Below, one piece after another: positions 11,675 through 13,351 of a stretch of DNA of 64,000 bases. The notes beneath the pieces were generated by a model, which saw nothing but the letters and a program-made list of their open reading frames with translations, had not been told where the DNA came from and made no database searches. The position numbers and the translations under genes were made by a program. Position 1 is the first letter of the stretch; every line of letters begins with the position of its first letter. Origin of the DNA: Escherichia coli (GTDB lineage: Bacteria; Pseudomonadota; Gammaproteobacteria; Enterobacterales; Enterobacteriaceae); NCBI RefSeq assembly GCF_003334785.1, contig NZ_QOWV01000001.1, one strand, 5' to 3'.

Positions 11675-13351
11675 CTAAGCAACATGTAGTTCATCGTTGG
11701 CGGAAGTGGCTGCTTTGCGCTCCTGCTCAATAGCTAGAGACTCTCTATATTCTTTCGCCTCTGCAAACATTGTCCAGTGGGCGTTGATGTTCATGTCTTC
11801 AATAACTGATTTGATTTCTTTTAAATTTACGTTAAAAAACTCTTTTCGTGAGTTAATTTTATTGACCTGCTTTTCGTTGAAAACTTTATGCAGATGGTTT
11901 TCTAATGATGGTGCATCATCACTATAAATCATCGCATGAACATCGAACGAAAAAGGAACACTAGCATCTCCGAGTTCACGAACACGATCAAGTGGTTCAA
12001 GGCGGCGTGTCATTCCAATTTTATATACATCTTCGCCAAATGAACCAATATTACTAATGATATAGACGTGGCCTGATCTGGTTTGTTGAGCCATAGAAAT
12101 AGCTCGTTGATTTTTAGCTTCAGCTTCTTCATATTTTAACTGTAGTTCAGCTATTTTTTGCTCTAAAGCTAAGCGTTGTTCTTCATTTGCAAGCATAAGT
12201 TCTTTCGTTGCTTTATTTATAGCTTGCTGAATAGCTTTTTCTTCTTTTTCAGCTTCTTTTATCGCTTTTTCATATTCTCTACGAGCTCTTTCCTCTTCAC
12301 GAAGCTGTTCTTTAATCCTTCTTTGCTCTTCTTTTTCTTCGAGCATAATTTCATTAACTGCTACACCCCATTTTAGCTCGTTGAGTCTTGCCTGAAGATA
12401 GATGTCACTTATTTTTGCGGACCTAAAGGCAGAGCCATTGTAATTTACTAGTTGAAATGCATCTTTTATTTCTTGGGAAAGTTTTCCAAAATTGTTGTGT
12501 TTGACTTTTGATAAAATACTGTCAACTCTTCCATTGAAGGCATCCAAAACAAAGTTTATGGCAGTATTACGCCTGTTTTGCTCAACATAATCACACGAAG
12601 CAGCTTTATTAGTTTTTATTAATGATTTGGTTAACTCTCTGGCTTTTTGTAATTCCTTGCCTGCATCTGTAAATTCATAATTTTCTGCCAGCTCATCAAG
12701 TACACTACGGTTAGGGATGATCCATTCATCACCATAACCTTCAATTTTATTTTTCATTGATTTTGCAACTGCTTCATATTTTTCTGCAAACTCTTTAGCT
12801 TCATATGCTGAACCAGCAATCTCCTTTGCTCTTTCTTCTGCATCAGAAATAATTTTTACTGCATTGTCATTAGCATTTGAGATTAGCTCATTTGCTTTAT
12901 TATTAGCATTATCAAGACGTTCTTTGGCTTTCAGGCGTGCATCGCGAGCGTCTTTGGTGATTGCTATAGCTTCGCTATTAGCGTTGCTTATTGTCATCTG
13001 AGCTTGATAATTTGCTTCGTTTACTGTTTTAGCCGCCTTAATTTGGGCTTCATCTATTTTTTGCTTGGCTATTGAGTCCGCATTTTTTATCTTATTCTCT
13101 GCATCCATTACTGCGCTGTGCAATTCTTCGTATTGCCACAATGGTGCTGCTCGCCCTTCAAGCTCTGATAATTCTCGTACGGTCTGTGCTAGTTTTTCTT
13201 GATTTTCAATCAGTTGGTTAGAAAGGGCTATGTTGTTAGCTGTCAGGTTATCTATAGCCGCTTTGTGTTTTTTACTTTGTTTAAATAATATTACAGCTAG
13301 AACAGGGGCGAGAAATGCTAATAAGAGTATAACGATGGCAAATGAATTCAT
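11675..13351 (-). CDS. Membrane-anchored coiled-coil protein with DUF4041-like core and C-terminal T5orf172/MUG113 (GIY-YIG-like) domain; prophage cargo, candidate defence gene
   Basis: 558-aa ORF; N-terminal hydrophobic helix then KQSKKHK; two long coiled-coil segments; C-terminal GHVYIISN...YKIGMTRR signature; visibly AT-rich DNA; AAGGA Shine-Dalgarno 7 nt upstream; start is 20 bp after the repressor stop. Domain assignment is by recall, not by HMM. Confidence 0.8.
   Translation of the reverse strand: MNSFAIVILLLAFLAPVLAVILFKQSKKHKAAIDNLTANNIALSNQLIENQEKLAQTVRELSELEGRAAPLWQYEELHSAVMDAENKIKNADSIAKQKIDEAQIKAAKTVNEANYQAQMTISNANSEAIAITKDARDARLKAKERLDNANNKANELISNANDNAVKIISDAEERAKEIAGSAYEAKEFAEKYEAVAKSMKNKIEGYGDEWIIPNRSVLDELAENYEFTDAGKELQKARELTKSLIKTNKAASCDYVEQNRRNTAINFVLDAFNGRVDSILSKVKHNNFGKLSQEIKDAFQLVNYNGSAFRSAKISDIYLQARLNELKWGVAVNEIMLEEKEEQRRIKEQLREEERARREYEKAIKEAEKEEKAIQQAINKATKELMLANEEQRLALEQKIAELQLKYEEAEAKNQRAISMAQQTRSGHVYIISNIGSFGEDVYKIGMTRRLEPLDRVRELGDASVPFSFDVHAMIYSDDAPSLENHLHKVFNEKQVNKINSRKEFFNVNLKEIKSVIEDMNINAHWTMFAEAKEYRESLAIEQERKAATSANDELHVA

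Follow-up and report, generated by a model that had tools for sequence, protein, structure and literature searches.

A SNIPE (PD-lambda-1) family nuclease gene as probable defence cargo between the repressor and integrase genes of a decayed 186-like prophage in Escherichia coli

Results

The window, by which we mean the whole 64,000-nucleotide stretch of Escherichia coli DNA analysed here, carries on its minus strand an open reading frame (ORF) of 558 codons (11675..13351, ATG start) that PADLOC, PHROG and RefSeq names place in the SNIPE (PD-lambda-1) family. It is flanked by a 186-type cI repressor allele (13372..13968, minus strand; PHROG 4; RefSeq 'phage repressor protein CI'), with which it is inherited, and by a tyrosine integrase gene (int; 10540..11592, minus strand; PHROG 1) with an rcdA-proximal attachment site, kept in all cargo variants of the locus. 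A preliminary description of this DNA had located the gene at the place that corresponds to the cI–int junction of phage 186; indeed, the cI and int genes of 186 abut and have position 22433 in common. The prophage is a decayed 186-like element, and the SNIPE gene is cargo between its repressor and integrase. About two thirds of the phage genome has been lost from this deletion remnant, which contains a gpA::tape-measure fusion.

The ORF had been described as AT-rich, and its composition bears this out: G+C is 0.370 (GC3 0.272), against 0.489 for int, 0.510 for rcdA, 0.550 for gpD and 0.510 for the whole window. Just 0.9% of 1677-nt windows have a G+C that matches or falls below that of the SNIPE gene, and those with G+C <0.40 all start within 11151-12701 and all overlap the SNIPE locus. 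The G+C of cI is likewise low (0.402), so the low-G+C island consists of cI and the SNIPE gene together.

Only 20 nt separate the cI stop codon from the SNIPE-gene ATG. Reading this spacer directly, we see a Shine–Dalgarno (SD)-like AAAGGA (13359..13364, minus strand) 7 nt 5' of the ATG; no terminator-like site was found between the two genes. The earlier placement of the gene in the lysogenic transcription unit thus holds for its strand, which is that of cI, for its position 20 nt downstream and for the uninterrupted spacer, and this arrangement suggests that the gene is co-transcribed with cI. A consensus promoter scan upstream of cI returned no minus-strand promoter; it did return a pR-like site on the plus strand (13962-13990). 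The switch region has diverged too far from that of 186 for the annotated pL of 186 to be transferred, and expression control could be altered in a deletion remnant of this kind. On the other side of the gene, a G+C-rich hairpin followed by TTTTT (11597..11616, minus strand) forms a terminator-like site immediately 5' of the int ATG. Its 3' arm, GAGGGCT, is the sole SD-like sequence for int, and the hairpin lies within the int-proximal sequence common to all cargo variants; the homology of int-only variants starts at about 11650-11672.

The architecture proposed from the sequence was a transmembrane (TM) helix, an Ala/Asn/Lys-rich helix, DUF4041, a Glu/Lys/Arg-rich helix and a T5orf172/MUG113 domain, and on this order composition, hydropathy, Pfam and AlphaFold2 all agree (the domains below are encoded on the minus strand). 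The N-terminal TM helix (aa 4-23; 13283..13342) has a Kyte–Doolittle 19-residue maximum of 3.16 at aa 4-22 and is followed by the basic cluster KQSKKHK; an equivalent segment is present in 51 of the 57 aligned homologues, and Kyte–Doolittle analysis gave no second hydrophobic segment in the protein. The positive-inside rule, together with the PhoA-LacZ topology of the reference SNIPE, predicts that the bulk of the protein is cytoplasmic. Next comes a long Ala/Asn/Lys/Glu-rich helix (aa 24-203; 12743..13282; for aa 31-200, Ala 0.20, Glu 0.12, Asn 0.11 and Lys 0.10), recognised from composition, the AlphaFold2 model and identity as the variable N-terminal 'adapter' region. It leads into a globular helical domain containing DUF4041 (aa 217-315; 12407..12703), compact in the model with a pLDDT of about 85-91; the Pfam core of DUF4041 (PF13250) spans aa 267-322, nt 12386-12553 (E 3.1e-12).

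A Glu/Lys/Arg-rich linker helix (aa 316-422; 12086..12406; for aa 331-422, Glu 0.25, Lys 0.12 and Arg 0.09) connects this domain to a GIY-YIG-superfamily nuclease domain (aa 427-520; 11792..12073). The latter is identified by Pfam (T5orf172, aa 427-520, E 8.1e-17; MUG113, aa 443-520, E 1.9e-19) and by alignment with the reference SNIPE. Five GIY-YIG-type residues, Y430, G446, R449, E484 and N497, do not vary among 57 diverse homologues; E484 (codon 11900-11902) is the counterpart of the catalytic E414 of SNIPE, whose replacement (E414A) causes loss of function (bioRxiv 10.1101/2025.11.03.685801).

The AlphaFold2 model (mean pLDDT 81.5) is elongated. A continuous helix (2-203) leads to a helical globule (about 217-315) and the linker helix (316-422, modelled as helices 316-387 and 390-422), and the C-terminal part is an alpha/beta domain (427-520) and a further helix (528-557). 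The same elongated order of TM segment, helix, DUF4041, helix and nuclease has been described for SNIPE (bioRxiv 10.1101/2025.11.03.685801). When the whole model was compared with the PDB by Foldseek, nothing matched at E <= 0.001; axonemal coiled-coil proteins predominated, and the GIY-YIG protein Slx1 appeared weakly (E 0.35-0.66). A profile search of PDB sequences returned just ATP synthase b and designed helical bundles (E about 1e-3) and no solved SNIPE structure. NCBIfam assigned no family, its matches being sub-threshold coiled-coil ones (DivIVA/Wag31, V-ATPase E, SMC). The claim of a GIY-YIG-type nuclease is upheld by Pfam and by the aligned catalytic Glu, and its match at the level of the fold is weak.

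Profile and sequence comparisons agree on the family. PADLOC calls the locus PD-Lambda-1 (PDLC03976, E 2.4e-120, aa 106-550 against positions 36-481 of the 491-position profile; PDLC03977, E 7.9e-117), PHROG 1847 matches with E 6.6e-133, and the identical (100%) RefSeq protein WP_021574262.1 is named 'SNIPE associated domain-containing protein'. The experimentally tested SNIPE is the 500-aa protein of phage PhiR26_1 from E. coli ECOR26 (RCP76574.1 / XSB42081.1); we fixed its identity by the nine residues at which the SNIPE paper describes mutations, each of them matching at its stated position. BLASTP aligns the C-terminal 293 aa (aa 265-555) with the reference at 50% identity (E 5e-77) and gives no alignment for the N-terminal 264 aa. 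The linker helix is 48% identical, and the nuclease domain shares 72 of 103 residues (about 70%), with E414 aligned to E484. Identity to the reference is about 18-25% across the adapter and DUF4041 regions (about 18-22% in the DUF4041 region), and the adapter is similarly diverged (about 18-21%) from other homologues. The 558-aa form itself is conserved at 83-85% identity in Citrobacter, Salmonella, Klebsiella and Enterobacter. There is no conserved partner gene: the neighbours here are cI and int, and those of the reference are unrelated (ren, rha). No paper reporting the 558-aa allele was found in the literature.

Among 5426 complete E. coli genomes, the SNIPE gene is present in 164 and the integrase in 1135. 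These counts, and the lack of the gene at the junction in 186, identify it as accessory cargo rather than a core gene, as had been proposed. Elsewhere in E. coli the cI–int junction holds Old (E 5.6e-234), PDC-S20 (E 4.2e-82) or just a 63-aa ORF. The junction is thus a variable defence-cargo site, in keeping with the earlier statement that such prophages carry variable anti-phage cargo. Moreover, the cI–int or int–primase junction of P2-related prophages is a published defence hotspot: the cI–integrase site has been described in K139-like Vibrio prophages, and 8% of P2 defence systems lie at the 'integrase-primase' hotspot (PMC9122126; 10.64898/2026.02.27.708500). The SNIPE gene is completely linked to one cI allele, and that cI is full-length in 163 genomes, against 163-164 for the SNIPE gene.

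The SNIPE gene is under strong purifying selection. Between E. coli alleles dN/dS is about 0.05 at a dS of 0.20-0.26, with 14-14.5 of the 15.5-17 nonsynonymous changes located in the TM segment and N-terminal helix. In 163 of the 164 genomes the ORF is both intact and full-length, and it is preserved in prophage remnants and also where cI has an internal stop.

Discussion

Our conclusion, to which we give a probability of roughly 0.85, is that a 186-like (P2-related) prophage carries the 558-aa gene as lysogen-expressed cargo and that the gene product is a defence nuclease of the SNIPE (PD-lambda-1) family. The evidence from sequence supports a nuclease of GIY-YIG type that is encoded by a single gene, is probably anchored in the membrane and belongs to an anti-phage family validated by experiment, and family homology suggests that this allele too has anti-phage activity.

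The system is already known. PD-λ-1 was discovered functionally in 2022 (Vassallo et al., PMC9519451), and in 2025, under the new name SNIPE, it was shown to be a GIY-YIG nuclease bound to the membrane, which cleaves the DNA of siphoviruses while their genomes are being injected (Saxton et al., bioRxiv 10.1101/2025.11.03.685801). The preliminary description was aware of no characterised system of this architecture at the locus, yet PADLOC and RefSeq both recognise the protein. What it had proposed, a lysogen defence protein with a nuclease-like effector, fits the validated family and survives; the premise of an uncharacterised system does not. Its membrane-tethered 'sensor' was loosely right: in SNIPE the TM and N-terminal region localises and restrains the enzyme, and DUF4041 binds both DNA and the tape-measure protein (bioRxiv 10.1101/2025.11.03.685801).

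If the allele acts as SNIPE does, anchoring would keep its GIY-YIG nuclease away from the chromosome, and the long helices would position the DUF4041 domain and the nuclease close to the membrane. On injection of a phage genome (that of a siphovirus in the tested case), DUF4041 would engage the incoming DNA together with the tape-measure protein complex; the nuclease would cut the entering DNA and the cell would survive, which would make this direct defence rather than abortive infection. For the reference protein, 32P-labelled lambda DNA is cleaved during injection, and the tape-measure protein crosslinks to SNIPE and is implicated by escape mutants (bioRxiv 10.1101/2025.11.03.685801). Phage specificity and association with ManYZ have been linked to the N-terminal and DUF4041 regions (bioRxiv 10.1101/2025.11.03.685801). 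Because the adapter and DUF4041 regions are so diverged here, the target range of the 558-aa allele may differ from that of the reference, and neither the target range nor the ManYZ and tape-measure partners can be transferred by homology. Family members are protective in Streptococcus thermophilus too; there, two homologues that are 98.5% identical to each other differ completely in activity, so homology is no guarantee of protection.

Could the protein instead be a toxic, abortive-infection effector, whose nuclease is released or activated against host DNA so that the cell dies? TM-deleted SNIPE does cleave host DNA and is toxic (bioRxiv 10.1101/2025.11.03.685801), so the nuclease is not intrinsically selective, and with an adapter and DUF4041 as diverged as those of this allele regulation could differ. 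However, the reference is a direct defence whose cells survive at high multiplicity of infection (bioRxiv 10.1101/2025.11.03.685801). The 558-aa protein has the same architecture and catalytic set as that reference and no sequence sign of another mode, and we regard an abortive effector as improbable. Phage homing endonucleases include proteins with GIY-YIG and T5orf172 domains. A role in the prophage's own biology, as a homing-type endonuclease spreading the cI-cargo cassette or as a nuclease of the lytic cycle, might on that ground be entertained, and complete linkage to one cI allele and the foreign composition of the cassette are in its favour. Yet its make-up, a membrane anchor with about 400 aa of helix and DUF4041, is unlike that of a free-standing homing endonuclease, a soluble nuclease with a sequence-specific DNA-binding module; Pfam found no such module of the I-TevI type in it. 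The profile match (aa 106-550) is to a family experimentally selected for phage protection, the gene lies on the lysogenic strand behind cI, outside the lytic operon, and SNIPE leaves lambda lysogen induction unaffected (bioRxiv 10.1101/2025.11.03.685801). This role we likewise judge to have a small chance of being right.

Smaller still is the chance of a non-functional passenger gene that decays along with a dead prophage. The large deletion in the window prophage, and the remnant state of the other carrier prophages, are in favour of this, but the low dN/dS at appreciable dS and an ORF intact in all but one of its carriers, including remnants and carriers with an interrupted cI, speak against it, as does the identity kept across four further genera; selection and intactness across carriers lead us to reject it. 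Least credible of all is a structural, SMC-like coiled-coil protein. GenBank annotates the protein as a 'chromosome segregation ATPase' in phage records ON470620.1 and OM835953.1, and SMC, DivIVA and ATP synthase b turn up as weak coiled-coil matches. These matches fall far under the curated cut-offs and cover helical stretches alone (SMC scores 15.5 bits, where the cut-off is 729), and the ATPase annotation is ruled out by the absence of a Walker A motif ([AG]xxxxGK[ST]) anywhere in the protein.

The SNIPE-family assignment shows that a reading from sequence alone got both the architecture and the role of a defence gene right, and it adds little that is new. Its value is that it extends SNIPE to a second type of prophage, with a divergent allele at the cI–int junction of a 186-like myovirus, and that this allele lends itself to comparison with the tested SNIPE: nuclease and linker are shared, adapter and DUF4041 differ. 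The adapter and DUF4041 were proposed as specificity determinants in the 2025 study (bioRxiv 10.1101/2025.11.03.685801), and domain swaps between SNIPE and the 558-aa allele could test that proposal. As a tentative idea, which we think rather unlikely to hold, the 558-aa enterobacterial subclade, whose N-terminal helix is longer and unrelated to that of the tested SNIPE and whose DUF4041 region is so diverged, would recognise different entry machinery, and cI linkage and retention in remnants that decayed independently would reflect repressor co-regulation and host domestication. Such machinery could involve an inner-membrane partner other than ManYZ, or the phages recognised could lie outside the siphoviruses.

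Compared with SNIPE of ECOR26 (PhiR26_1), the gene is alike in being single, prophage-borne and built from a TM segment with a basic cluster, a long helix, DUF4041, a linker and a nuclease with a catalytic Glu. The proteins differ in length (558 aa here, 500 aa in the reference), with an N-terminal helix about 70 aa longer here, and at two positions: K327 occupies the place of W257, resembling the gain-of-function change W257R of the reference, and S292 that of E223. The settings differ too: the reference belongs to a lambdoid prophage, where it occupies the ren / nin region, and the present gene is on the lysogenic strand of a 186-like myovirus prophage at the cI–int junction. Like the cargo of P2-like hotspots (Rousset 2022; Vassallo 2022; 10.64898/2026.02.27.708500), it is a variable anti-phage gene between conserved core genes. 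The cI–int site is, however, distinct from the major gpA-portal (tin/old) and fun(Z) hotspots, and in this gene's lineage the cargo swaps jointly with the cI immunity allele. Zorya and Kiwa, for which PADLOC gave no match at the locus, resemble SNIPE in acting at the inner membrane on phage DNA injected at genome entry, and Zorya also in having a nuclease effector. Both are multi-gene systems of unrelated proteins, and what they sense is perturbation of the envelope; SNIPE instead binds to the injection machinery. Like SNIPE, the superinfection-exclusion protein HK97 gp15 is encoded by a prophage, resides in the inner membrane and has an effect that depends on the tape-measure protein of the incoming phage; gp15, though, has no nuclease and blocks injection, whereas SNIPE permits injection and cuts the DNA.

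A divergent member of the SNIPE family

The 558-aa protein encoded at 11675..13351 (minus strand, ATG start) is, judged by its sequence, a clear member of the SNIPE family, and it diverges exactly in the regions proposed as specificity determinants in 2025 (bioRxiv 10.1101/2025.11.03.685801). PADLOC calls it PD-Lambda-1 (E = 2.4e-120; aa 106-550 against profile positions 36-481 of 491). The identical RefSeq protein, WP_021574262.1, is named 'DUF4041 domain-containing protein' or, where the annotation is recent, 'SNIPE associated domain-containing protein'. PD-lambda-1 was obtained from E. 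coli ECOR26 by functional selection for lambda resistance (PMC9519451), and the same laboratory named it SNIPE in 2025 (bioRxiv 10.1101/2025.11.03.685801).

Each part of the architecture predicted in the preliminary description was recovered, and its ORF coordinates were exact. One hydrophobic segment (aa 4-23, Kyte-Doolittle 3.16) is followed by KQSKKHK; Ala, Asn, Lys and Glu are abundant in aa 31-200, as are Glu, Lys and Arg in aa 331-422. Pfam profiles matched DUF4041 (aa 267-322, E 3.1e-12), T5orf172 (aa 427-520, E 8.1e-17) and MUG113 (aa 443-520, E 1.9e-19). In an AlphaFold2 model built with 57 diverse homologues (mean pLDDT 81.5), residues 2-203 form a single helix and ~217-315 a compact helical domain; 316-422 make up a second long helix, 427-520 an alpha/beta domain, and a further helix ends the protein. 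A TM-like N-terminal segment is present in 51 of the 57 homologues, and Y430, G446, T448, R449, R450, E459, E484 and N497 are invariant in all of them. The family comprises 3368 representatives of 50%-identity clusters (E <= 1e-3); the 558-aa form is also present in Citrobacter, Salmonella, Klebsiella, Enterobacter and relatives, with 83-85% identity.

The tested SNIPE could be identified among phage records. A tblastn search led to a gene of Escherichia phage PhiR26_1 that is labelled 'PD-lambda-1' and is 1503 nt long, the same as in ECOR26. Its protein has E223, N250, L253, W257, E264, K305, I308, T319 and E414 at exactly the sites of the SNIPE paper's mutations, so it is the tested SNIPE. 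Over aa 265-555, the window protein shares 50% identity with it (E 5e-77). A global pairwise alignment gives identities, per window residues, of 72/103 in the nuclease domain, 44/92 in the linker helix, 28/130 in the DUF4041 region, 31/170 in the N-terminal helix and 6/30 in the TM region. E484 aligns with the catalytic E414; SNIPE W257 is replaced by Lys327 and E223 by Ser292. In SNIPE, W257 to Arg strengthens defence against Bas14 (bioRxiv 10.1101/2025.11.03.685801).

A putative membrane-bound nuclease acting on incoming DNA

The tested SNIPE requires both its GIY-YIG nuclease (E414) and DUF4041, which binds DNA and crosslinks to siphovirus tape-measure protein; ManYZ is an associate, and SNIPE without its anchor attacks the chromosome (bioRxiv 10.1101/2025.11.03.685801). 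As lambda DNA is injected, SNIPE breaks it (32P-labelled) into fragments, blocking neither adsorption nor injection, and infected cells survive; it protects against most BASEL siphoviruses and against no myovirus or podovirus (bioRxiv 10.1101/2025.11.03.685801). By analogy, the window protein would be expressed in the lysogen and would cut incoming phage DNA at the membrane. We put the probability of this reading at roughly 0.85, for family and mode, target range aside. Lysogen-expressed defence, as first proposed, is the best-supported explanation.

The competing explanations are all very improbable. An abortive infection effector would run contrary to the mode of the tested SNIPE. We give equally little credence to a homing or phage-lifecycle nuclease, a reading hard to square with a membrane anchor, with a gene on the lysogenic strand and with the history of selection behind the family. 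The pattern of substitution contradicts a decaying passenger: against three alleles ~95% identical in DNA, the window allele has dS 0.20-0.26, dN ~0.012 and dN/dS ~0.05. Moreover, of the 15.5-17 nonsynonymous changes, the TM segment and N-terminal helix account for 14-14.5 and the DUF4041 region for none, and 163 of 164 carriers among complete E. coli genomes have a full-length ORF. Together these observations argue for a maintained function and a faster-evolving adapter region, the published SNIPE pattern (bioRxiv 10.1101/2025.11.03.685801).

An SMC-like ATPase was also considered and excluded, as the window protein contains no Walker A motif. For the same reason, the label 'chromosome segregation ATPase' carried by the SNIPE gene in GenBank records ON470620.1 and OM835953.1 is a coiled-coil artefact. 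The former record covers a prophage region flanked by host DNA rather than a phage genome; the latter is filed under Vequintavirinae, and the clone is P2-like.

The cI-int junction is a variable cargo site

Spacers of 20 nt and 82 nt separate the gene from the 186-type cI repressor gene upstream (13372..13968) and int downstream (10540..11592), respectively; all three are on the minus strand. It is AT-rich, as had been noticed by eye: G+C is 0.370 (GC3 0.272), against 0.510 for the whole window, 0.489 for the integrase, 0.510 for rcdA and 0.55 for tail genes. Only 0.9% of 1677-nt windows are equally low, and all windows below 0.40 overlap the SNIPE locus. Because the adjoining cI is low too (0.402), the compositionally foreign island comprises cI and the SNIPE gene.

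In phage 186, cI and int abut inside the annotated pL lysogenic operon, which fits the proposal of a moron in the lysogenic unit. AAAGGA stands 7 nt ahead of the SNIPE ATG and no terminator-like site was found between cI and the gene; we infer that the two are co-transcribed. A strong sigma-70-like promoter (TTGACA-17-TAGTAT, 13962-13990, plus strand) overlaps the cI start at the position of 186 pR; a consensus scan found no minus-strand promoter for cI.

The integrase (at least ~90% identity) occurs in 1135 of 5426 complete E. coli genomes and the SNIPE gene in only 164; the integrase adjoins rcdA in every locus inspected. Other occupants of the junction are an Old-family nuclease (PADLOC E 5.6e-234), the KAP-NTPase candidate system PDC-S20 (E 4.2e-82) and, as sole occupant in some genomes, a 63-aa ORF. 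The variants regain homology at ~11650-11672, directly past the SNIPE stop codon.

The full-length cI allele is found in 163 genomes, against 163-164 for the SNIPE gene; linkage is essentially complete, which indicates that immunity allele and cargo move together. In same-integrase prophages with other cargo (L004, L005, L007), the cI proteins share only 45-54% identity with that of the window. Eight genomes match just the first 209 nt of the window cI (88.6% in the two matches listed), a pattern suggestive of recombination breakpoints within the gene.

A minus-strand hairpin rich in G+C (AGCCCTC-TGATAT-GAGGGCT, 11597-11616) is followed by TTTTT and then by the int ATG at 11592. It belongs to the int-proximal sequence common to all cargo variants, and its 3' arm holds the sole SD-like sequence for int. 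Termination or attenuation between cargo and int is one possible role; masking of the ribosome-binding site of int is another.

In related prophages a second variable site lies between integrase and attachment site, corresponding to the 'integrase-att' hotspot of a 2026 P2 survey (10.64898/2026.02.27.708500). It holds a Panacea-domain gene and a hypothetical gene in AH04 (L006 6246-7474) and a 110-aa ORF in BL21(DE3) (L008 6186-6518). In the window it is empty, with ~105 nt from int to rcdA.

The SNIPE gene in prophage remnants

The window prophage is a remnant of ~11.5 kb (int, SNIPE, cI, apl, cII, fil, dam, gpA', 'T, U, D). An in-frame fusion ORF (16969-20073, plus strand) joins aa 1-434 of the replication endonuclease gpA to the tape-measure protein's C-terminal ~600 aa, the halves overlapping by 4 nt at ~18269-18272; gpU, gpD and host ybjL follow. 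This junction is absent from all 5426 complete E. coli genomes, and is therefore a strain-specific deletion or an assembly artefact. Elsewhere, the early region of carrier L001 is apparently intact, and the KP12 clone, in which int adjoins ogr-D-U, is the excised phage form. SCU-118 retains a 4.5-kb stump (ogr / cII' / apl / cI / SNIPE / int; L010 13023-17429) whose int-SNIPE-cI block is 100% identical, and OkiPb01680 (L014) has an internal stop in cI and an intact SNIPE gene. The defence gene seems to outlast the remainder of the prophage.

Comparison with known systems

The preliminary inference, drawn from sequence alone, was accurate; it erred only in holding that nothing alike had been characterised. 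The system is already known: PADLOC and RefSeq/PGAP name it, the family mechanism has been dissected, and a cI-integrase hotspot has been published for K139-like P2-related Vibrio prophages (Rousset et al., PMC9122126). In the literature on SNIPE and P2-related hotspots we found no account of the activity of the 558-aa allele, of 186-like prophage carriage together with a specific cI allele, or of Lys at the W257-equivalent position; these are incremental additions. The tested SNIPE lies in the ren / nin region of a lambdoid prophage, whereas the window gene occupies the cI-int junction of a 186-like prophage.
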